Source: an uncultured virus (IMG/VR IMGVR_UViG_3300049445_000078) (Duplodnaviria > Heunggongvirae > Uroviricota > Caudoviricetes). From it: 20,000 bases of DNA. Each line of letters begins with the position of its first letter. Position 1 is the first letter of the stretch. The position numbers were made by a program, and so were the translations under genes. The notes beneath the pieces were generated by a model. It worked only from the letters and a program-made list of their open reading frames with translations. It did not search any database and was not told where the DNA came from. This document shows positions 2,439 to 15,133 of the stretch, one piece after another. Where the stretch lies: IMG/VR virus record IMGVR_UViG_3300049445_000078. The stretch is one strand, 5' to 3'.

Positions 2439-2849
2439 TTATAGCCCTGCCATCCGGCCTGCCCATCGAAAGGCTATAGCGCCCCTTACGCTGCGTTCCC
2501 GCTCCCTGACGGCGTGGTTATCATTCCCGCTACGAATGACCCATCCATTTGTAGCCCTAGCTGTTATGAGCCCAACGTGGTGATACCAGACCACAATAGC
2601 GCCTACTGCCGGTCCACCAGCAGAACTGCCAAAATGCGCCCAGTTACGGGCTAAATTATAGGACCTGTCAGCCACGCCTAATTCATGGCGGAGCCACCAG
2701 CCACACCATGCGTGAGGTCTAGGGTCAGAAACAGCGCCTAGGGCATCCTGAGAGGCAATGCGGGCCATTCTATAGTGGTGGTGATGGTGTCTGGCTTGGG
2801 CGGCAGTGGCTATCGTTAAAGCGGCTATCAAGGCGATGAGACGAATCAT
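2439..2849 (-). CDS. Secreted CHAP/NlpC-P60-fold cysteine peptidase (TIGR02594-like)
   Basis: Signal peptide ending AQA; AWCG (Cys), GAIVVW-HHVG (His) and SGN motifs. Confidence 0.75.
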   Translation of the reverse strand: MIRLIALIAALTIATAAQARHHHHHYRMARIASQDALGAVSDPRPHAWCGWWLRHELGVADRSYNLARNWAHFGSSAGGPAVGAIVVWYHHVGLITARATNGWVIRSGNDNHAVRERERSVRGAIAFRWAGRMAGL

Positions 2850-2897
2850 CTGGGTTCCTTTTTCAGTCGTTTTGGGTTAAACGTAGACAACTACCTC

Positions 2898-3143
2898 CTA
2901 AGACTCTGTTATTAAAGTGGAATTCGATGGGTGACAGGATTTAGGTGATTTGTCAAGTTCCATAGCCACGAAGGAGTCGAGAATTGGCCGCAGGAGGGAT
3001 GCCTTACTTTTATTTTGCCGCTTGGCGATAAGGGTAATGGCATCGTAGGTTTTGCTGCTGACTTCGATTAGAATTCCCTTGGATGCTCCATTACAGACGC
3101 CACTGGCTCTAAATCTGTCTTGTGCCACCTTTCGCCGTCCCAT
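2898..3143 (-). CDS. Ribbon-helix-helix DNA-binding protein
   Basis: GILIEVSSKTYDAITLIAKRQNKSKASLLRPILDSFV fits the RHH pattern; GAGGGG RBS; overlaps the upstream gene by 76 nt. Confidence 0.7.
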   Translation of the reverse strand: MGRRKVAQDRFRASGVCNGASKGILIEVSSKTYDAITLIAKRQNKSKASLLRPILDSFVAMELDKSPKSCHPSNSTLITES

Positions 3144-3445
3144 GAATATCCCCTCTTGGCCATATCCGAATCCATCTTAGCAATCCGCTCTTTGCTTCCT
3201 GGGTCTGGTTCGTAATCCAGATACCGCTTTTGATTCAGCCATGTTCTGGCGTGGCAGACGAATTCTGTGCCCAAATGATTCTCGGCCATGACTTCCGCAC
3301 GATAGGCATGGGCGGCATTGACGATGACTTCGGGATTGGTCCCTGACTTTATGGCCGCATCCCACTTGGTTCTCGCAGCAGCTTTGGGGTTTGAACCTTT
3401 GCGCTTTGGGTAGACGAGCCAGAAGTCAAAGAAGGTCAGAGCCAT
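3068..3445 (-). CDS. Stand-alone C-terminal domain of a phage replication initiator / replisome organiser
   Basis: FFDFWLVYPKR...KAAARTKW...HARTWLNQKRYLD motif; no N-terminal HTH. Confidence 0.75.
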   Translation of the reverse strand: MALTFFDFWLVYPKRKGSNPKAAARTKWDAAIKSGTNPEVIVNAAHAYRAEVMAENHLGTEFVCHARTWLNQKRYLDYEPDPGSKERIAKMDSDMAKRGYSWDGERWHKTDLEPVASVMEHPREF

Positions 3446-3777
3446 GTTAACTTCCCCTTCATCGGATATTTATCGAGTGGCAAAACCTGGCACTGCACAT
3501 ATTTTCCATCAATCCATTCCCGATTGTACCAATGGCCGATTCGAGTACAAACGTGACCATGTTCCGTTACCCGGCTTTCATAGATAACCAACTTGTCCGC
3601 TGTTTTATATTCTTCCCAACGATAGTTGATGAAGCGATCACCACCAGCCTTCAGCCACGGAGTAGCAGACAACATTTTGAGGGGAGGCAGAACGGTCTTT
3701 GCCTTTGGCTTTTGTATGCCAAACAAACTCACAAACGGTAGACTAGCCAAGATTGTAAACAGGTTACGTCGATTCAT
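3436..3777 (-). CDS. Hypothetical protein with twin-arginine-like N-terminus (113 aa)
   Basis: AAAGGAG RBS, MNRRNLFTILASLPFVSLFG. Confidence 0.7.
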   Translation of the reverse strand: MNRRNLFTILASLPFVSLFGIQKPKAKTVLPPLKMLSATPWLKAGGDRFINYRWEEYKTADKLVIYESRVTEHGHVCTRIGHWYNREWIDGKYVQCQVLPLDKYPMKGKLTWL

Positions 3778-3790
3778 TAGGATTCTCCTT

Positions 3791-4318
3791 TCACCATTCA
3801 TGTCCGCATTTGGGGCAGTGCTTGATAGGCTTCTTGCGGAAACCAGCTTCGATAGCTGCTGCATTAGCGGATAGTTTTTTGGCAATTACTTTTTCAAACA
3901 AATCTGGGCGCTCCCGCTTAAGCCGGGAAACCGTGTAGGATAGGGAATTGCCGCGACCATCATGGATAGTGACATTGTCACCATCCTCTATCGTATGTTG
4001 ATTGGTTCCCACTGGTCTCTTTATTGCATCACGCCATAAAGCGACTGTCTGTGGATCATCCTTAATAAGAGCCTCAACTTTATTAATTGGCCAGCCACAT
4101 CCTTTGAGCGGAGGAGTGACAATAAAATCAGAGAAGTTTGTAAATTCTATTGGTTCCTTTCCCAACTGAGGAACCTCTCGTTTTTTCCAAGCTTCTGTCT
4201 CAAGCAGTCTCCTAACCAAAGGAGCCACATTCTCAAGACTGCCAGCAGATGTATTTACAGCACTCCAAAGAGCCTGCACCAGATGATGATTCTCAATAAG
4301 ATTGTTAATCACAGCCAA
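3791..4318 (-). CDS. Hypothetical DNA-binding protein with ParB/KorB-like helical C-terminal region and terminal CPKCGHEW
   Basis: GTNQH motif and RLKRERPDLFEKV...LSANAAAIEAGF helical block; overlaps the helicase stop by 10 nt. Confidence 0.7.
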   Translation of the reverse strand: MAVINNLIENHHLVQALWSAVNTSAGSLENVAPLVRRLLETEAWKKREVPQLGKEPIEFTNFSDFIVTPPLKGCGWPINKVEALIKDDPQTVALWRDAIKRPVGTNQHTIEDGDNVTIHDGRGNSLSYTVSRLKRERPDLFEKVIAKKLSANAAAIEAGFRKKPIKHCPKCGHEW

Positions 4319-6189
4319 TCCTGTTCTCTAAGGATTGCTTCCCTTAGTCTATCTATCTTTCTTTGTAGTTGGGATATCGACATTTGCGATTGAGGAACCT
4401 TATCAACCATAAATTCGATATTAACTTCCTTCGTTAACGGTTCCCAAATAGCCCTATTATAAGATTCTCCATGCCCCCGGCGTTTCTGTCTTATCTTTGT
4501 TAACTGGCGCACAAGTTCATTGGCATCTTTTTTCAACCGTTCTTCTTTCTCCCATGGCGGTTCTCTCTCCACATTTTCATTTTCTAGTGGCGGTTCTCCA
4601 GTTTTAAGGCCCTGAGCAAAACTAGGATCACCTAACATCAGTACCGCCGATGTTTCACTTATCCTGTATTTTTTTTTAAGTTGTTCTATTACCGAAACTC
4701 TATCCCCAGTGTAATGTTGTCCATGAATTATATAGCCAACAAATTCTGGTTCTGACCCCCCAACTGTAATTCCCATCTTTGGCAGTGATAAACCGTCGCG
4801 ATTAATGTCATTACTTTTCTTTTTCTTTTCTTCCCAAGCCAACTCCTGCAATCCTTCAATCGTTTGAGCAAACTCAGTAAGTTTTTTTACCTCTGGAATA
4901 AATACATGAGCAGTAGCTTGCTCATCATCTTCATTTTCCATTCTTCTTACACATCTTCCAACCAATTGACGAAAAATTAAGTTTGTTGCCTTGTTCGTTA
5001 AATAGGCCAAAACTTTTAATCGTGGGATATCTACCCCCTCTGAAACTATCTGGACGGACACCAGCCATTTTTTAGCATTATTCTTCGCAAAATCATCAAT
5101 CGCATAAAGAGAATCTTCTTCCTGTTCCGGATCAGAAGTAACAACCGTTGATTTTTGCCCAAGTATTTCAAGTAATCCATAAATTTGTTTTGCATGTCTT
5201 ATATCTTTAGCAACAACCATTGCCGCTGCTGAAATATCTTTCTCCCTTATTTCATCAAGTTTGCGATTTGCATCTCTCAAGATTGAAAGAAGAAATGAAC
5301 TGTTGTCTAAAGCATATCCAAGATATGATTCATCATCACTACAAAGTTGTTTCTTTTCTTTTCCAAACTTCACATCAACAAATTCCATTTTCTCTCGATG
5401 AAATGTAATTTGCCTAACCACATCATCACTTAATGCCCTAGGCCAATCATATGTGAAGTCAGCTACATATGACCCATTGGAAACTTCGATCCATTTTGTT
5501 AATTCACCATCCGAGCGTAATGGTGTTCCAGAAAGAAGAAGTCGGCGCTTTGCTAAACCAAAGGCTTCTTGTAAATCAAATCCAAATTTTGAATCTTCTC
5601 CCTCTGAGGCGTGGTGGATTTCATCACAAATCAACATGACAGAATGATCTGAGCAAAATTTACGAAAAATCATATTCTGACTTTTAAGGGCCTGATAAGT
5701 TGTTGACACTCCGTTATATGGTTCCTTTAGATACCCGTAGAAATTTTCATCAAGTTTAATACCGGCGTCAAACATCTTTGAACGCCAGTGACGCTTTATT
5801 TGTCGCGTAGGACTAACGACAACAACGACACCACCTTTCTCTAACCACAACCGGACAACTCTTATTGAGGCATAAGTCTTTCCACCTCCAGGGAGAGCAC
5901 AAAGGAAAAAATTAGGTTTTGTGTGACTCTGATATTTTTCAATGAATTCATCTTGCCAACTGAATCTATTTTTATTCATCTTATTTCCTTTCAAAATATT
6001 TTCTTTCGGAGTTACCACATCGCAATTTTCAATAGCGGTTTCTCCCCCTCTCGAATATGGAACGCGATGGTCAGCGTGCATTTTAGTGGGGTCCAATGGT
6101 TCCCCACTAATTGCGCTTTTTCCATCTTGGGATAACCAAGCTGCCATTCGCTCACCCTTGTTAAAGCGCCTTCGTTTATCAAGAACCAT
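4309..6189 (-). CDS. HNH nuclease fused to SF2 (ResIII-like DExH) helicase, 626 aa
   Basis: HADHRVPYSRGGET..EN...ENILKG (HNH core); ALPGGGKT, DEIHH, SGTPLRSD, SEGVDIP, QLVGRCVR (motifs I, II, III, V, VI); GGAG RBS before ATG 6189. Confidence 0.9.
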   Translation of the reverse strand: MVLDKRRRFNKGERMAAWLSQDGKSAISGEPLDPTKMHADHRVPYSRGGETAIENCDVVTPKENILKGNKMNKNRFSWQDEFIEKYQSHTKPNFFLCALPGGGKTYASIRVVRLWLEKGGVVVVVSPTRQIKRHWRSKMFDAGIKLDENFYGYLKEPYNGVSTTYQALKSQNMIFRKFCSDHSVMLICDEIHHASEGEDSKFGFDLQEAFGLAKRRLLLSGTPLRSDGELTKWIEVSNGSYVADFTYDWPRALSDDVVRQITFHREKMEFVDVKFGKEKKQLCSDDESYLGYALDNSSFLLSILRDANRKLDEIREKDISAAAMVVAKDIRHAKQIYGLLEILGQKSTVVTSDPEQEEDSLYAIDDFAKNNAKKWLVSVQIVSEGVDIPRLKVLAYLTNKATNLIFRQLVGRCVRRMENEDDEQATAHVFIPEVKKLTEFAQTIEGLQELAWEEKKKKSNDINRDGLSLPKMGITVGGSEPEFVGYIIHGQHYTGDRVSVIEQLKKKYRISETSAVLMLGDPSFAQGLKTGEPPLENENVEREPPWEKEERLKKDANELVRQLTKIRQKRRGHGESYNRAIWEPLTKEVNIEFMVDKVPQSQMSISQLQRKIDRLREAILREQDWL

Positions 6190-6551
6190 AAATTGCTCCG
6201 TAGTACGGCAAATTTTAACGTACAACAAAAAATAGAATAATGCAACTTACTACTTCTAAAGTGTACTTCTTAACCATCTGCTCACTGGTGAACTTGGGTT
6301 CGAGGCCCGAATACCCCCCTACCCCCCAGAATTTATCTGGAAGGTCAGGGGGATAAACGGGCGCTGTCCTGCTCACTGGAGCCACTTTGGGACATTGGCC
6401 CTAGACCGGCCTTTTCCGCAGCCACACATCCGGTCAGGGAACTAAATCCCTCATACCCTGCGTGTGCCCGCTTGCTGCGAGAGCCGATTCGGTGGTTTTG
6501 GGAGGAAAAACTTGGCCTTGACGGAACTGCTGCCTATTGGCATATGTTCTT

Positions 6552-6638
6552 TAGTCAAGGTCTGGTTTTTCTCCCCCAGAGAATCAGCCACCAGATCAGC
6601 CCGCACACCTTGCAACAGGTGAGGCGGGCAAACTTTTT
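6552..6638 (+). ncRNA. Candidate ~85-nt antisense (counter-transcribed) RNA
   Basis: CTTGAC(6517-6522)-17-GCATAT(6540-6545) resembles the rhizobial CTTGAC-N17-CTATAT promoter; ends at a GC hairpin followed by a T-run. Confidence 0.45.
6599..6638 (+). terminator. Intrinsic terminator-like hairpin
   Basis: GCCCGC-a-CACCT-tgcaac-AGGTG-ag-GCGGGC followed by aaacTTTTT. Confidence 0.5.
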
Positions 6639-6670
6639 GTACCACGTTCCATGCGGTTTTCAAGTCCCAT

Positions 6671-7012
6671 CTATGGTAGGGAACAGATAGTAACCACACA
6701 ATCTGTAACCTTGGCCCACTCGACAGACACTCCCCGCATATACTTTTTCTGGTCTCCCTCGATGATTCCGCAGGAAACCAGTAGGTCACAAACCGCCTTA
6801 ATCCGGTTGTCGCAATCCCCGGATCGGGTATCATCAAGTAGGATTTTGAGCTTGAAAGGCCCCTTAATAGGTTGAATCTTATATTGTTTTAACTTCCATC
6901 CAGCCTCGGTTTTCCAAGCTCTATAAAATGTGGATAAGATTCGCCCTTTCCCCCGCTTGTTGAGAAACATCTCGTTCACGGAAGGGGGGAATGGTATTTT
7001 AAGGGTTAGCAA
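6671..7012 (-). CDS. rusA: RusA-family Holliday junction resolvase
   Basis: PFPPSVN...W...GDCDNRIKAVCDLL..CGIIEGD motifs. Confidence 0.88.
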   Translation of the reverse strand: MLTLKIPFPPSVNEMFLNKRGKGRILSTFYRAWKTEAGWKLKQYKIQPIKGPFKLKILLDDTRSGDCDNRIKAVCDLLVSCGIIEGDQKKYMRGVSVEWAKVTDCVVTICSLP

Positions 7013-7442
7013 GGAGGCTGGTCTCTATGGACCGGATGAAGTCAGCGATTTGACCGTTTTGAGCCAAGAGGTTTTCTATTTTCCAAATAGCGTGAAGACA
7101 GGTGGTATGATCTCGGTTCATCCTCGTTCCAATCGTCGTTAAAGTTGTATTGGGAATGATGGTATACATGAAATAGATAGCAATATGCCTTGCCAGAGTG
7201 ACCCTCGGTCTCCGGCTTTTTCCGAGTATATCCTTGATTCCCAAGCGGAAAGCATCGCTTACGGCATTTAGTATTAGGTTACCATTAAGGATTTTGACTG
7301 GTGGTGGGTAGTATTCTTGTACCAGTATCTTTTTCTCCTGGAAGAAGTACCCTCTAGGAAGGCGTTTTAGATCAATACCTATATCGTCAACGGCCTTGGC
7401 TGGGTGGGTGAGGCGACGGTGGATTTCAGCCGCTGTGCTCAT
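6999..7442 (-). CDS. Protein with DnaA C-terminal (domain IV) HTH
   Basis: ILGKSRRPRVTLARHIAIY...IG..MNRDHTTCLHA matches the DnaA domain IV signature; no AAA+ domain. Confidence 0.88.
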   Translation of the reverse strand: MSTAAEIHRRLTHPAKAVDDIGIDLKRLPRGYFFQEKKILVQEYYPPPVKILNGNLILNAVSDAFRLGIKDILGKSRRPRVTLARHIAIYFMYTIIPNTTLTTIGTRMNRDHTTCLHAIWKIENLLAQNGQIADFIRSIETSLLANP

Positions 7443-7444
7443 CG

Positions 7445-7858
7445 CTAGACCCTATAATTGAGGTATTGATTGCAATGGTGGGGGCACCAGGACTGCCCCT
7501 CATGCACTGGAAGTCCGCAGTAACGGACGAGTGAGTAGCGGTCGTCATCCCGGCCTATGACGGCATGGCACTCGTAGGTCCCGATTTTCATGAAGCTGAC
7601 GCCCGAGCTAGTGAATGTGATAGGGGGAACATCCATCGGCGGCTTGATCTCCGCCTTGATCTTAGTCACGGGCTTGCGCGGTTGCCGCCCCTTCTTCTCC
7701 CGCAGGCTCCAAGGATGCTTAGGGAGGCCCAGACGGTTAGCCATGCCCAAGACCGAATTCTTGGTGCGGCCAACGGTGACCCCTATCTCCTTGGCGTGGA
7801 TGCCGTCCGCCCACATAAGCTTGAGGGTGTCCTTGCTCTCCTCGTTCCATTCATTCAT
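7445..7858 (-). CDS. gcrA: GcrA-family cell-cycle regulator homologue
   Basis: W.EE....LK.MWADG..A.EIG....RTKNSVLGMANRLGL N-domain and C..VIG...YCG.P...GQSWCP.H C-domain; ATGA overlap with cro. Confidence 0.88.
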   Translation of the reverse strand: MNEWNEESKDTLKLMWADGIHAKEIGVTVGRTKNSVLGMANRLGLPKHPWSLREKKGRQPRKPVTKIKAEIKPPMDVPPITFTSSGVSFMKIGTYECHAVIGRDDDRYSLVRYCGLPVHEGQSWCPHHCNQYLNYRV

Positions 7859-8040
7859 AGGAACCAATCCCTAATTTTGACTTTTCCACAGGTTTTCTTC
7901 TCAATCTTCTTCAGCATCCGAGGGCGCGGTATCCGCGTACCTTGTCGCCATTTACTTATGGCTGACTGAGATGCGCCGATAGTCTTGGCAAATCTTCGTG
8001 TCGTTATTTTGTTGGCCGACAGCCATTCGCTGATTTTCAT
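7855..8040 (-). CDS. Cro/YdaS-like HTH regulator (61 aa)
   Basis: FAKTIGASQSAISKWRQGTRIPR...IEKKTCGKV..DW; first gene of the leftward operon. Confidence 0.85.
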   Translation of the reverse strand: MKISEWLSANKITTRRFAKTIGASQSAISKWRQGTRIPRPRMLKKIEKKTCGKVKIRDWFL

Positions 8041-8099
8041 GAAAATTTGTATACACCCAAATTGTGCTATTGACAAGGAGGCACAGATTGGGCTATGAA
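8041..8099. promoter_or_regulatory. Back-to-back promoters with overlapping -35 boxes and an inverted operator pair
   Basis: Minus: TTGTCA(8076-8071)-17-TATACA(8053-8048)-7-ATG (leaderless cro). Plus: TTGACA(8070-8075)-18-TATGAA. Inverted repeat CCCAAATTGTGC (8056-8067) / GCACAGATTGGG (8081-8092), 10/12 match. Confidence 0.7.
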
Positions 8100-8124
8100 C
8101 AACGTTGGAACAAAGAGAGTGGTT

Positions 8125-8319
8125 ATGGAGATAGATAGCCTAAGATATATTTACGGAGAGGATGTCACAGCAAATGGTGACGGAACTTTCACCTTAAGTC
8201 TGTCTCCATGGTGTGAGAGACCCATGTGCGGTTTTGTGTCTGAAGAGTTTGCACTTTTGGCCGCTGAAATAGTGCATGAAGCAATGCGGGAATATTGCAG
8301 TGGCATGTATGAAGATTAA
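8125..8319 (+). CDS. Small acidic hypothetical early protein
   Basis: First ORF of the rightward operon; start at 8125 or 8095. Confidence 0.6.
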   Translation: MEIDSLRYIYGEDVTANGDGTFTLSLSPWCERPMCGFVSEEFALLAAEIVHEAMREYCSGMYED

Positions 8320-8331
8320 AGGAACGGACAA

Positions 8332-8610
8332 GTGATAGCCGCCGAAGACGTTGATCATTATTGCCACATGATCGCCAGTCATGTCTGGAGTCTGCACGGT
8401 GTTCTCAGTGACGAGGCTTATGGTTATCTCCCGCGTTTGGAGACAATCATTAACGAGGGCGGCTTTGCTGCGCCGGAAACGGAAGAGATTAACGGATTGA
8501 GGAATGCAGCGGTGGAACTTCGCAAGATGGCAGACAGAATTGATGCTTTGAAAGTTCGGCTCATATTGAATGAGAGAGTGGTTCGCCCTGAAATCATCCG
8601 GAGCCAATAG
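8332..8610 (+). CDS. Hypothetical protein whose 3' end appears replaced by the 8582-9437 insert
   Basis: AAAGGA RBS, GTG start; removing the insert gives the C-terminus ...NERVVRRALQSAT* ending at 9460. Confidence 0.65.
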   Translation: MIAAEDVDHYCHMIASHVWSLHGVLSDEAYGYLPRLETIINEGGFAAPETEEINGLRNAAVELRKMADRIDALKVRLILNERVVRPEIIRSQ

Positions 8611-8959
8611 GCCGGAAGGTCGCGCCTATTGCGCCGCCTTCAATGGCTGGCTTCAAACCCACCATTTCGACATCGAAAAAACAGTCCGTTCTGCGGCGCT
8701 CGATTTAATTGAGAACCTGCCTGCCATCGAGCAATGGCGATCAACGCTGCCGGAGCGCCAGCGTCGAAGGCTAGTTCACCCGCTCAGCGTGACCCGCCGT
8801 TGGCGAACGGCAACAGCGCCGAAAGCAACACCCGATGCCGTGGCAACCGCTGAGGCCGCATGGCGGCGCTTTGTTGCTTGTATGAATTCGCTACCGCCCG
8901 ATCAGGCCGCGCCATTCTGGAAGGCGGCACAGGCGCAAGCGGCTGCCGCTCTAGCGTGA
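8570..8959 (+). CDS. Helical hypothetical protein (GANRPEGRAY...WRSTLPERQRRRLVHPLSV), N-terminus spans the insert junction
   Basis: Long GC-rich ORF. It resembles, from memory, a Rhizobiales hypothetical family; function unknown. Confidence 0.6.
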   Translation: MREWFALKSSGANRPEGRAYCAAFNGWLQTHHFDIEKTVRSAALDLIENLPAIEQWRSTLPERQRRRLVHPLSVTRRWRTATAPKATPDAVATAEAAWRRFVACMNSLPPDQAAPFWKAAQAQAAAALA

Positions 8960-9037
8960 GTCCGATACAAGCCAAAATAGGTCACAAGAAAAATCAAAGT
9001 GAGCCACCGTGGAAAGAGCGGCCTAAGTTATCAACCC

Positions 9038-9050
9038 AATCAATGGCTTG
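9038..9050 (+). promoter_or_regulatory. IHF-binding consensus site
   Basis: AATCAATGGCTTG matches WATCAANNNNTTR exactly, in the only intergenic gap of the insert. Confidence 0.45.
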
Positions 9051-9120
9051 ATATAACCCCTTGCTTTGGAACGAGATTTCGTTCTACACGTTATTAATTC
9101 GTTTACAAACGGGGCAGAAA

Positions 9121-9417
9121 ATGGACGCCGTGAGAGACGGACACCCGATGATAGTAACTGTCCAGCACGCTTTTGCGAATGGCTGGCACGAATTTACTTG
9201 TCCGCAGGTGCCGGGTTTTTGCGTTCTCTCGGAAGCATCCGATCTTGAGTCCGCATATGATCAGGTGCCAACAGCACTCGGCGAGATCGTGGAAGGTGAC
9301 GAAGGTTTTCCCGTCACTGTCACGCTAGAAGACACATATTCGGAATATGTGGCCAAGCTGCCTGAGGGCATGCGGCCGCCCGCAGAGCGGCACTATTCGA
9401 TCAAAAAAGCCGCTTGA
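9121..9417 (+). CDS. HicB-like antitoxin-fold protein (98 aa)
   Basis: WHEFTCPQVPGFCVLSEASDLESAYDQVPTAL aligns to the HicB pattern Y.a.cPdlPG....g.tleeA......al. Confidence 0.6.
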   Translation: MDAVRDGHPMIVTVQHAFANGWHEFTCPQVPGFCVLSEASDLESAYDQVPTALGEIVEGDEGFPVTVTLEDTYSEYVAKLPEGMRPPAERHYSIKKAA

Positions 9418-9426
9418 TCTCGGCGG

Positions 9427-10059
9427 ATGATTTCGCCGCGCTCTCCAATCAGCGACCTAAGAGCGTGTGAGGCATCTCGTTTATGGCGAGCAAATCATTT
9501 AGAACAATGCCGTACTGATGACCGGAAGCGATATTATAAACATCGAGATAAAAATAGGACCCGCATTAATGAATTGTCCCGTGCGCGGTATCATAAAAAT
9601 AAAGACAGACTAAGAGACCATAAAAACGAGGTAAAGTGTAAGTGGAGAGCAAAAAACCCATGTCTCGTTCGCGAGTATTGGAAAAGATATAAAGCAAAAC
9701 ATAAGAAAGAAATAAACGACCGACAGAAGATATGGAGACAAAAAAACGCAGAGCGAGAACGACAGCGCGCACGAGAATATTATGCAAAAAACCCAGAGGA
9801 GTTTCGTAGGCGTGGACGTGATGCGGCGCGCAAGCGAAGAAAAGAAAAGCCAGAACACCATCGAATGGTTAGACAAATATGGGCAGAAAAAAATGCACCA
9901 AGAATTAGATTCTTAGCTCGTGAACGACGCAGAAAAAACAGAATCAGAATACGAAATATGGATAGCACGAGATACAAAATAGCAAGGATGGCTCTTTCTT
10001 TATGCGAAGAGCTTAATCTTCTTGATAAAATCAAGCAGGAGATATCACATGAGGCATGA
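9427..10059 (+). CDS. Highly basic Arg/Lys-rich repeat protein
   Basis: Repeated [W/Y]xxKNxE units about every 15 aa; no nuclease motif; start codon uncertain. Confidence 0.7.
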   Translation: MISPRSPISDLRACEASRLWRANHLEQCRTDDRKRYYKHRDKNRTRINELSRARYHKNKDRLRDHKNEVKCKWRAKNPCLVREYWKRYKAKHKKEINDRQKIWRQKNAERERQRAREYYAKNPEEFRRRGRDAARKRRKEKPEHHRMVRQIWAEKNAPRIRFLARERRRKNRIRIRNMDSTRYKIARMALSLCEELNLLDKIKQEISHEA

Positions 10060-10990: not shown

Positions 10991-11315
10991 GTTTCTTGGC
11001 TCTCTGCCGTTGCTTGGATTGGTGGGGATTGAGGCAAAATCTCATCCATTATTATTGGAAGGCGTTATCAAATATCAGAGAGCCAAATATCGATGGATAG
11101 CCCCCGGTTCTCTTAGGGATGCAGTAGAAAGTGGCATCTATAAGAATTTTCCTGGATTTCCGCGAGATGACCGATACGTGGTGGCTTGTCCAACCACTGA
11201 CGGCAAAACAGCGTGGTATTGCAGAGATAATGAAAAGGCTTGGTGGATTGATGAATCGGATGATTCCATAACAATAGAGTTTGTTAAGGATGAGAAAAAT
11301 GACCATAAAAGATAG
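10968..11315 (+). CDS. Hypothetical protein with twin-arginine-like N-terminus (115 aa)
   Basis: AAGGAG RBS, MNRRNLFKFLGSLPLLGLVG. Confidence 0.7.
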   Translation: MNRRNLFKFLGSLPLLGLVGIEAKSHPLLLEGVIKYQRAKYRWIAPGSLRDAVESGIYKNFPGFPRDDRYVVACPTTDGKTAWYCRDNEKAWWIDESDDSITIEFVKDEKNDHKR

Positions 11316-11475
11316 ATTCTATTTCAATGAAGACCTGACCGATTTGCCTCGCAAGCCAAAATACAGATGGAGTGAGAAGAAGGAAATTGACGGTATTGAC
11401 GGAGATATTTGGATTGATGACGCCACAGGAGAAAAATATTGGTTCCAGAATATCTTTCAGAGCAAGCCTCAATGA
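11299..11475 (+). CDS. Small hypothetical protein (58 aa)
   Basis: ATG 11299; ATGA overlap with the next gene. Confidence 0.55.
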   Translation: MTIKDRFYFNEDLTDLPRKPKYRWSEKKEIDGIDGDIWIDDATGEKYWFQNIFQSKPQ

Positions 11476-14912: not shown

Positions 14913-15133
14913 TACTTTATATTCCCATCTTTGTCGTACTCGGCGCGTCTACGCCGTAGAACCTCGGTGACAAAGCCATTCAGGATAAGCCACCACGTTA
15001 AATACTTGCCGTTCAGGAGTGGTGAGAGATCGGTCTGTGAGAGTGCATACCATGCCGCTCCGACAGCGACCTGAATCCTCGCCCACCAGATGACTTCCGA
15101 ATCGGCAAACGTCTTCTTGAATTTGTCCCACAT
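14912..15133 (-). CDS. Putative 2-TM holin
   Basis: Two hydrophobic segments, basic tail LRRRR. Confidence 0.65.
   Translation of the reverse strand: MWDKFKKTFADSEVIWWARIQVAVGAAWYALSQTDLSPLLNGKYLTWWLILNGFVTEVLRRRRAEYDKDGNIK

Follow-up and report, generated by a model that had tools for sequence, protein, structure and literature searches.

The stretch analyzed here (the window) is 20,000 nucleotides (nt) of DNA from an uncultivated soil or rhizosphere phage of the Caudoviricetes (IMG/VR record IMGVR_UViG_3300049445_000078), and 14 metagenome runs contain at least part of it. In the minus-strand early operon of the window, within the 481-nt gap between rusA and a helicase gene, we found a non-coding element that is conserved between phages, folds into an extensive structure with covarying base pairs, and carries motifs that recur in its homologues. 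An earlier note on this DNA, made from the window alone, had described a ColE1-like arrangement at this place, with a short RNA antisense to the 5′ end of a long leftward RNA, and had proposed an RNA-primed, antisense-controlled origin of replication. All the sequence features that it described are present where it placed them. Comparison of the homologues supports the sense/antisense layout, which appears to be the best account of the conserved motifs, and the RNA pair is probably real. As to function, an RNA-primed or RNA-activated origin is the leading single mechanism, which we put forward tentatively, with an antisense-regulated leader of the replication genes close behind.

Conservation and non-coding nature of the element

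A 20-nt core from the block 6387–6470 retrieved three IMG/VR loci from two distinct phages: L111 is part of G002, a record of 73,120 bp with a completeness rating of 100%, and L109 and L110 are two contigs with 99.95% identity. Two further patterns from other blocks retrieved the identical three IMG/VR contigs; other exact-pattern scans gave no matches, and the homologues differ by one base in each of those patterns. Here and below, statements on the three phages refer to the window, L111, and L109. By blastn, window positions 6268–6644 matched L111 at 82% and positions 6302–6636 matched L109 at 76%, with flanks that could not be aligned. An nhmmer profile of the element spans 6264–6640, and conservation stops at about 6262–6268.

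Pairwise DNA identity of the element among the three phages was 80–85%, compared with 55–64% for four flanking genes (GcrA-like, DnaA_C, rusA, and phrog_270; 32–62% identity at the protein level). On these alignments, the element is the best-conserved DNA of the region, above every neighbouring gene. The alignment contains 223 invariant columns out of 395, and its longest invariant runs measure 38 (6462–6425), 15, 14, 13, 12, and 11 nt. At least five further variants were present in soil or rhizosphere metagenome contigs from runs X6, X8, and X9. Soil contigs with unlike flanks match the window only in the blocks 6302–6327, 6387–6470, and 6588–6638, and the stretches between these blocks are replaced at similar length (75 for 69 and 113 for 118).

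The element is single copy per genome and has so far been found in one narrow phage group. It showed no sequence similarity to any of 50,697 phage records, and a blastn search of 72,556 plasmids gave no match. Since the relatives of RusA (L002–L006, five viral loci) and of the HNH-helicase (22 metagenome loci and 80 genome loci) lack the element, it is tied to neither gene family at large; the 11 metagenome loci of helicase relatives that were inspected have no such upstream gap.

The results also showed that the element is non-coding. Insertions and deletions among the homologues have lengths that are not multiples of three, and none of the open reading frames (ORFs) of 20 aa or more is shared by the three elements, whichever strand is read, as the frames break at these positions. 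The frames opened by a shared AUG at CAUAUGCC diverge past approximately 12 codons. At the Rfam gathering score the window gave no match, known structured RNA families (RNase P, tmRNA, riboswitches, group I/II introns, HEARO, ROOL, GOLLD, and others) included. Permissive searches found no ColE1-related family at E-values up to 10 (positions 6100–6800) or up to 5 (L111 and L109), and what they returned were chance miRNA- and CRISPR-like matches. No tRNA or tmRNA was detected by ARAGORN.

In composition and folding, the element stands apart from its surroundings. The GC content is 0.55 over 6262–6640, compared with 0.31 to 0.46 in the surroundings. The region 6229–6670 folds with −186 kcal/mol on the minus strand (z = −7.6) and with −173 kcal/mol on the plus strand (z = −6.3), and in neither case did any of 100 shuffled sequences fold as well.

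Promoter-like sites and the predicted antisense RNA

The two convergent promoter-like sites and the short antisense unit ending at a hairpin and T-run, which the earlier note had read from a single sequence, recur in all three homologous elements. In the candidate antisense promoter, the 12 hexamer positions are invariant in the three phages and the spacer is fixed at 17 nt, whereas each phage has its own sequence in the central 11 nt of this spacer, and insertions and deletions occur in the variable stems nearby. The site agrees at 10 of 12 positions with the Sinorhizobium meliloti sigma-70 consensus, CTTGAC-N17-CTATAT as given in PMC2873474, which may not be the consensus of the host.

An RNA starting approximately 7 nt past the −10 hexamer and ending at the T-run would measure 83–92 nt across the three phages. 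Because of the positions of the promoter and of the hairpin and T-run, the predicted plus-strand RNA of ~87 nt would match the 5′ end of the minus-strand RNA with full complementarity. The three homologues fold into the same two hairpins, SL1 and SL2, with energies of −34.7, −34.3, and −35.5 kcal/mol (z = −4.7, −3.5, and −4.8). The consensus has 19 pairs, among them a G·U pair of SL1 that is kept in all three phages and one compensatory change from U-A to C-G in L109. SL1 competes for positions 6590–6597 with a long-range helix of the sense RNA, and the SL1 change in L109 breaks this helix while being compensated within SL1.

SL2 consists of an outer stem (GCCCGC at 6599–6604 with GCGGGC at 6624–6629) and an inner stem (CACCT at 6606–6610 with AGGTG at 6617–6621); both stems are invariant in the three phages, and the loop alone differs, in L111. 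Beyond SL2 the window reads AAAC followed by TTTTT (6634–6638), and in the three phages AAAC or AAC is followed by CTTTTTG, CTTTTTT, or CTTTATT. Among the soil contigs with unlike flanks, five pieces cover 6588–6631/6638 and one more (record 16) covers 6589–6618. Three of the contigs continue past the hairpin with CTTTTTG, CTTTTTG, and CTTCTTT, and their flanks diverge thereafter. A loose end from run X9 has GATCTGG where the window has GGTCTGG, in a piece with four unlisted differences; this change would convert the G·U pair of SL1 to A·U, provided that the contig keeps the partner CCAGATC.

In the candidate sense promoter, a −10-like hexamer occupies the same register ahead of the conserved (A)AAG-TTGCCCGCC in all three phages (TACAAA, GATAAA, and TATAAT), with flanks that are otherwise unrelated. 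Inspection by eye of three soil-contig loose ends at this place showed TAGAAT and TAGAAA in two of them and GAGACA in the third. The −35 sites are moderate (CTTGAA, CTTTAC, and TGGACG, the last at 19-nt spacing). Initiation ~7 nt past the −10 hexamer would place the 5′ end of the sense RNA at the base of its first hairpin. The sense −10 hexamer and the antisense T-run are not independent evidence, because they consist of the same bases.

Structure of the predicted sense RNA

The earlier note had expected conserved structure in the homologues, and this is what the comparison gave. The RNAalifold consensus of the three sequences comprises 92 pairs in 12 helices, with 93.8% of the cells paired. 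Eight pairs changed on both sides, compared with 3.4 ± 1.4 in shuffled alignments (none of 500 reached this number) and with 0–3 in slid controls. In the part with the long-range helix (6476–6605), three of the 19 pairs of helix 3 and two of the six pairs of helix 4 changed on both sides. The clearest case is the compensatory exchange of the closing pairs of the core hairpin from CA..UG to AG..CU, and the same closing-pair substitutions at 6423/6424 were found in contigs of runs X8 and X9.

The G-tract GGGGGGUAGGGGGG, which the earlier note had placed ~310 nt downstream of the leftward start, lies at 6327–6314 in the minus sense, ~304 nt downstream of that start. The G-rich arm is conserved in all three phages, with a one-base insertion in L109, and the tract is sequestered in a hairpin. 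Its partner arm varies, with seven pairs showing a one-sided change; six of these are C to U, which gives G·U in the minus sense and C·A in the plus sense. The G-tract hairpin is the only one that clearly favours, on this pattern of substitutions, the minus sense. Over the whole element, the ratio of wobble cells (G·U:A·C) was 26:8 when the structure was modelled in the minus sense and, by a hand count, 24:9 in the plus sense, and the consensus fold energies were −108.8 and −106.7 kcal/mol for the minus and plus strands, respectively.

The 5′ segment UUGCCCGC pairs with the local GCGGGC (6604–6599) in the minimum free energy fold of the window and with the distal, invariant GCGGGCA (6471–6465) in the consensus fold. 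Since both partners are invariant, the comparison cannot choose between them.

Two copies of an 11-nt direct repeat flank the G-tract hairpin. The repeat gave two matches, and 10 of 200 shuffled sequences also had at least two. Both copies are kept in L111, and in L109 they change in concert to CCGAA(A)GGGUAAG. Such a repeat would fit two sites for one partner; no partner was found. Among the smaller signals, neither a boxA-like GCUCUCGCA nor, by eye, the GANTC sites of the element are conserved, and a tRNA-like T-arm at 6296–6312, considered as a possible attP, was dropped because it is not kept in L109.

Table 1. Coordinates of the element, its parts, and the neighbouring genes in the window
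Feature	Position	Strand	Remarks
Conserved non-coding element, whole	6262–6644	−	Sense is the direction of the flanking operon
Candidate sense promoter, CTTGAA/TTGAAA, spacer, TGG-TACAAA	6636–6664	−	TTGAAA 6663–6658 (CTTGAA 6664–6659), 16-nt spacer, TACAAA 6641–6636 preceded by TGG; expected start ~6629–6631, at the base of the 5′ hairpin
Candidate antisense promoter, CTTGAC-N17-GCATAT	6517–6545	+	CTTGAC 6517–6522, GCATAT 6540–6545; expected start ~6552
Predicted antisense RNA, ~87 nt, two stem-loops	6552–6638	+	SL1 arms 6559–6566/6590–6597; SL2 6599–6629
Hairpin and T-run	6599–6638	+	Terminator-like end of the predicted antisense RNA; on the minus strand, 5′-terminal hairpin of the predicted sense RNA
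Long-range helix enclosing a variable hairpin	6476–6605	−	6605–6586 with 6497–6476; the apex carries the candidate antisense promoter
Invariant 38-nt core in a three-tier hairpin (6464–6423)	6425–6462	−	Longest invariant run of the alignment
G-tract hairpin	6305–6362	−	C/U-rich arm 6362–6340 with GGGGGGUAGGGGGG-UAUUCGGG 6327–6305
11-nt direct repeat CCAGUGAGCAG (minus sense), two copies	6369–6379, 6278–6288	−	Flank the G-tract hairpin
AT-rich 5′ untranslated region of the HNH-helicase gene	6190–6261	−	GC 0.31; outside the conserved element
cro-like helix-turn-helix (HTH) gene	7855–8076	−	
GcrA-like gene	7445–7867	−	
DnaA domain-IV HTH protein gene (DnaA_C)	6999–7442	−	
rusA	6671–7012	−	Upstream of the element; Pfam RusA 3.8e-07, phrog_34 1.4e-18
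HNH and SF2 helicase gene	4309–6189	−	Between the element and the initiator-like gene
Initiator-like gene, C-terminal domain only, 125 aa	3068–3445	−	phrog_270 ‘replication initiation protein’, DnaD-like

Proposed mechanism and the points that weigh against it

We propose that the element may be a self-contained control cassette of the replication module, encoding two overlapping RNAs. The promoter at ~6664–6636 would start a long structured minus-strand sense RNA with a stable 5′ hairpin, which would extend for ~370 nt through the conserved helices and on into the replication genes. The promoter on the opposite strand would yield the two-hairpin antisense RNA of ~87 nt, which would stop at the hairpin and T-run and be the exact complement of the first ~80 nt of the sense RNA. 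Duplex formation between them would change the fold of the sense RNA, and binding of the antisense RNA may switch UUGCCCGC between its local and distal partners. The sense RNA would act in cis to start replication and the antisense RNA would throttle it, as an RNA-based origin of the kind known for ColE1, lactococcal phage c2, and the non-RepA mycobacteriophage prophages. Once freed from its hairpin, the invariant G-tract would stabilise an RNA–DNA hybrid. That either RNA is made, that the two interact, and every step of priming are what we infer from the conserved features described above.

The surroundings of the element fit such a proposal in part. The earlier note had placed it inside a replication operon, and in all three phages it does stand at the head of replication genes. 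Also in favour of an origin are its rank as the best-conserved DNA of the region, its tolerance of insertions on either side, and an initiator-like protein that consists of the C-terminal domain only in this group. No conventional origin was seen near the element, judging from repeats and boxes in the sequence: iteron arrays were found neither in 2800–9500 nor in the whole window, and DnaA-box-like words numbered 24, compared with 32 expected, with no tandem or spaced array in 2800–9500. In G002, where 71 of the 72 ORFs of at least 100 aa were scanned (the one left out lies inside the element), there was no PHROG match to a polymerase, primase, or replicative helicase, so that the phage must recruit host machinery. 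The earlier note had regarded the lack of an integrase or cI in the window as consistent with a plasmid-like prophage state; in G002, a small serine recombinase is present, and neither ParA/ParB nor an integrase could be recognised.

A number of observations weigh against an RNA origin controlled in this way. There are only three distinct full-length sequences, and the covariation tests lean towards structure because the structure was derived from those same three sequences. In a single sequence the described features are not beyond chance: a consensus scan of 5800–8400 flagged neither promoter nor terminator of the element and gave one promoter-like site elsewhere, compared with 3.4 expected. 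The antisense −10 hexamer is weak when set against the E. coli TATAAT (3 of 6 positions in the best register), and the T-run starts 3–4 nt past the stem. None of the 14 runs containing the stretch is listed as RNA, and the four that were aligned to it all gave DNA contigs. The predicted sense RNA lacks a defined 3′ end and would continue into the genes, and early transcripts from upstream can read into it. The G-tract is paired in its hairpin rather than free, and the wobble count over the whole alignment does not settle the strand. The AT-rich stretch that the earlier note had seen past the G-tract is present in the window, but it is the 5′ untranslated region of the helicase gene and is not conserved, the GC content being 0.40 in L111 and 0.47 in L109, compared with 0.31. 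The cumulative GC skew of the window has its minimum at 6000–7000, driven by the low-GC helicase gene, and the skew of G002 shows a weak, transcription-like pattern; as the skew gives nothing decisive, no weight was given to it.

The last of these points concerns rival sites. The earlier note had held that an iteron origin elsewhere in the genome would speak against its proposal, and two relatives possibly have one. G002 contains an iteron-like array at 71083–71461 (L127 11083–11461) with seven copies of GCCTGCC(T/A/G)TGAC 38–54 bp apart, and L115 contains one at 686–905 with four copies of GCCTGCTTTG, three of which follow one another at 49 bp and the fourth after a further 64 bp. Both arrays share the motif GCCTGCYTTG and lie in a non-coding gap just upstream of an exonuclease gene (phrog_10477), ~3.2 kb from the element. 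Such an array could be an origin, a centromere, or an operator array. No array of this kind was found in the available ~46.7 kb of the phage of the window (the window plus G001), and the equivalent gap of the window, 11315–11439, contains no repeats. As an origin is essential and the element can occur without the array, the array cannot clearly be taken for the origin either.

Alternative explanations

In the best-placed alternative, which we consider nearly as likely as the RNA-based origin, the sense RNA would serve as 5′ leader of the replication genes, and the antisense RNA would reduce their expression by duplex cleavage or by refolding, with the origin elsewhere, for example at an iteron-like array. 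Such a role would suit the continuation of the sense RNA into the genes without a 3′ end, the arrays of G002 and L115, and the place of the element directly ahead of the initiator-like gene in two of the three phages, with a ribosome-binding site within ~25 nt in L111; the two-hairpin antisense RNA also matches plasmid copy-control RNAs in size and shape. A leader, however, would not need the ~290 nt of conserved structure that lie downstream of the antisense target and include the 38-nt run and the G-tract, and inspection by eye of the sense RNA showed no conserved attenuator (a hairpin and U-run). Adjacency to the regulated gene is broken by a 2.7-kb insertion in the window, and also upstream in L109; read-through from the early promoter reaches the downstream genes as well, and the array is absent from the available ~46.7 kb of the phage of the window.

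It is rather unlikely that the element works as DNA, namely as an origin or protein-binding region that forms hairpins in unwound DNA, with no functional RNA. Invariant runs of 38, 15, 14, and 13 nt would suit recognition by a protein, the DnaA domain-IV protein of the phage needs a site, both strands fold almost equally, in the consensus as well as by z-score, and the wobble count picks no strand. On the other hand, the element contains no cluster of DnaA boxes and no repeated binding motif of at least three copies (the repeats within 6100–6800 are two-copy only, apart from one weak three-copy family at 73–80%). Moreover, the six G·U-type changes of the G-tract hairpin and the kept G·U pair of SL1 point to pairing in RNA, and invariant hexamers at a fixed 17-nt spacing with a variable middle are what a promoter would be expected to show.

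We also regard as unlikely that the element encodes a structured RNA with another job (a host-factor sponge, anti-defence, processive antitermination, or a stabiliser) that is processed from the early transcript and regulated by the antisense RNA. A large, ornate, and conserved RNA with no Rfam family, single copy per genome and with further variants in soil or rhizosphere contigs, would be in keeping with this. It would leave unexplained the strict placement of the element in the replication module of all three phages, and there is no terminator or evident processing site at the 3′ end. The element is also confined to one narrow phage group, in which three patterns retrieved the identical three IMG/VR contigs.

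In a more specific form of an RNA origin, which we think very unlikely, the structured RNA would replace the missing origin-recognition half of the initiator in a split ribonucleoprotein. The RNA would mark the origin in cis by an R-loop at the G-tract, the C-domain protein would recruit the host helicase loader, and the antisense RNA would set the firing rate. In two of the three phages, the 380-nt element lies exactly where the N-terminal coding half of an initiator would be.

Finally, it is hardly credible that the element is remnant or selfish DNA (a decayed N-terminal half of an initiator, a small mobile element with inverted ends, or a type I toxin–antitoxin), since the element is more conserved than its functional neighbours, unlike a decaying remnant, is single copy at a fixed place, and has no conserved small ORF on either strand, even if distant relatives have full-length initiators (275–354 aa) where this group has the element and a C-domain-only gene, the layout resembles hok/sok, and a 15-nt imperfect inverted repeat (6217–6231/6634–6648), with its left arm outside the conserved part, brackets the region.

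Comparison with known systems

In the ColE1 scheme, RNA II is the primer and RNA I the modulator, as related in PMC7157519. The RNA pair predicted here would resemble it in that a long structured RNA has a promoter to itself, its 5′ end is the complement of a short antisense RNA that stops at an intrinsic-terminator-like hairpin, a G-rich segment follows a few hundred nt downstream, and no initiator gene lies inside the element. The predicted antisense RNA, however, forms two stem-loops instead of three, the G-tract lies within a hairpin and has no conserved AT-rich or primosome-assembly site after it, and the long RNA runs on into protein genes; the element, moreover, is part of a phage early operon, beside genes for a DnaA domain-IV protein and a DnaD-like C-domain protein. 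Neither a sequence nor an Rfam relation to RNA I or RNA II was found. Because membership of the ColE1 family fails on homology, the element can only ‘work like’ ColE1; what survives of the earlier note's ColE1 likeness is the candidate layout, which recurs in all three phages.

According to Wetzel et al. (2020; PMC7157519), RepA is absent from most extrachromosomal prophages of cluster A mycobacteriophages, and in non-RepA mycobacteriophages a non-coding transcribed region of approximately 400–500 bp is necessary and sufficient for replication. A non-coding, presumably transcribed region of about this size, in a phage without recognisable RepA, would be common to both cases. There is no sequence similarity, and the mycobacteriophage origins, as described there, lie beside parABS and act in the prophage, whereas the element lies in an early replication operon and parABS was not found in G002. 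That description mentions no antisense partner.

The lactococcal c2-type origins are reported to be non-coding, to lie after promoter PE1, and to replicate plasmids without phage proteins, the length and structure of the PE1-T transcript being crucial (PMC7150918). The element resembles them as a non-coding region downstream of an early promoter with a predicted structured transcript. Unlike the element, which lies inside the replication operon, the c2 origin is placed between the divergent early and late modules, its sequence is unrelated, and the account cited describes no antisense RNA.

Among phages, initiation based on RNA has been demonstrated for only a few systems, and in the accounts cited no antisense partner is described. 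RNA-based phage origins are thus of a known kind; the novelty here would lie in the conserved antisense partner, in the position within an early replication operon next to genes for DnaA domain-IV and DnaD-like C-domain proteins, and in an unrelated fold. No description of this element was found in the literature, in searches that were not aimed at ruling one out.

In plasmid systems such as CopA/CopT of R1, ColE2 RNA I, and the pT181 countertranscripts, antisense RNAs act on the leaders of rep mRNAs through duplex cleavage or refolding. The predicted antisense RNA would be similar to these, being a structured RNA in the range of ~60–150 nt directed against the leader of a replication gene, with two stem-loops of which the second is the terminator. 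It differs from them in that the leader exceeds by far, in length and in conservation, what such control requires, that neither a leader peptide nor an attenuator was detected in it, and that the downstream gene varies among the three phages. In phage lambda, oop overlaps the 3′ end of the upstream gene cII. The likeness to oop lies in a short antisense RNA with an intrinsic terminator, just upstream of an initiator gene and directed against the early operon, whereas the antisense RNA predicted here ends at 6638, short of the rusA stop codon (6671–6673), and would target non-coding RNA only. The element has neither the direct repeats in at least three copies beside an AT-rich stretch that mark an iteron-type origin nor the conserved small toxin ORF of a hok/sok-like type I toxin–antitoxin system.

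For most uncultivated phages, the origins and the control of replication are unknown. If the element is an antisense-controlled RNA origin, the logic of ColE1 would have arisen also in tailed phages of soil bacteria, and the element would offer a compact, protein-free replicon part for hosts lacking genetic tools. Even if it is only a regulatory leader, it would still be a new conserved structured RNA motif with no Rfam family, with a cis-antisense partner supported by comparison and with conservation above every neighbouring gene.

Gene context and minor observations

The element lies downstream of rusA and ahead of the initiator-like gene, co-oriented with the operon, in all three phages. 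The early operon of the window has the order cro-like HTH, GcrA-like, DnaA domain-IV, RusA, the gap with the element, helicase, two unknown ORFs, and phrog_270. The order in L111 is GcrA-like, DnaA_C, an 80-aa ORF, RusA, the element, and the phrog_270 C-domain gene, and that in L109 is cro-like, GcrA-like, DnaA_C, RusA, an HNH endonuclease, the element, and the phrog_270 C-domain gene. Thus, the element is directly ahead of the initiator-like gene in L111 and L109, whereas in the window a 2.7-kb HNH-helicase block of lower GC content parts the two.

The helicase gene has a GC content of 0.39 and a strongly negative GC skew. Its start, which the earlier note had put at TTG 6228, is the ATG at 6189, according to the alignment with homologues, and is preceded 8 nt upstream by GGAG. 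The HNH-helicase fusion resembles an insertion between the element and the initiator-like gene, and HNH genes are found beside or near the element also in L109 (1961–2314) and L111 (2376–2843, a weak match), which fits homing endonucleases settling next to conserved DNA. The element tolerates insertions both upstream (an HNH gene in L109) and downstream (the HNH-helicase block in the window), in keeping with an autonomous unit.

The initiator-like gene matches phrog_270 at 3.4e-20 over profile positions 180–265 of 383. The three phages encode C-domain-only proteins of 119–141 aa (window 3068–3445, L111 1996–2355, and L109 2755–3180), and these orthologues are 53–63% identical. In distant relatives without the element (L118 and L120), the same domain ends the full-length proteins mentioned above, and in the RusA-related phage L002 the corresponding place is taken by a 315-aa initiator and a primase-helicase. 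L109 also has a short ORF of ~15 codons (2709–2756) with two Cys-x-x-Cys-like pairs, placed after the element and ahead of the initiator-like gene; nothing corresponding to it is present in the window or L111.

An alphaproteobacterial host, at which the GcrA-like gene hints, is no more than a guess, as a Sulfolobus control is matched by PF07750 too, and in a scan of 41 genomes of one bacterial phylum GcrA was above the cut-off in none.

G001, which extends the phage of the window to ~46.7 kb, begins at window position 9265 and does not include the element region. An A-rich repetitive stretch at 9546–9885 was considered as an iteron array and rejected, because it codes for a Lys/Arg-rich protein; the ORF concerned (9427–10059) encodes a repetitive protein with no family match, and its A-rich repeats mimic a DNA repeat array. 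The 73,120-bp record of G002 carries a 127-bp terminal repeat, and because a common assembler k-mer is just as long, the ‘direct terminal repeat’ may reflect no more than a circular assembly. Just past the small terminase gene of G002 (15009–15093, L124), three copies of GCGCGTAGTTC occur within 75 bp and may represent a packaging site.

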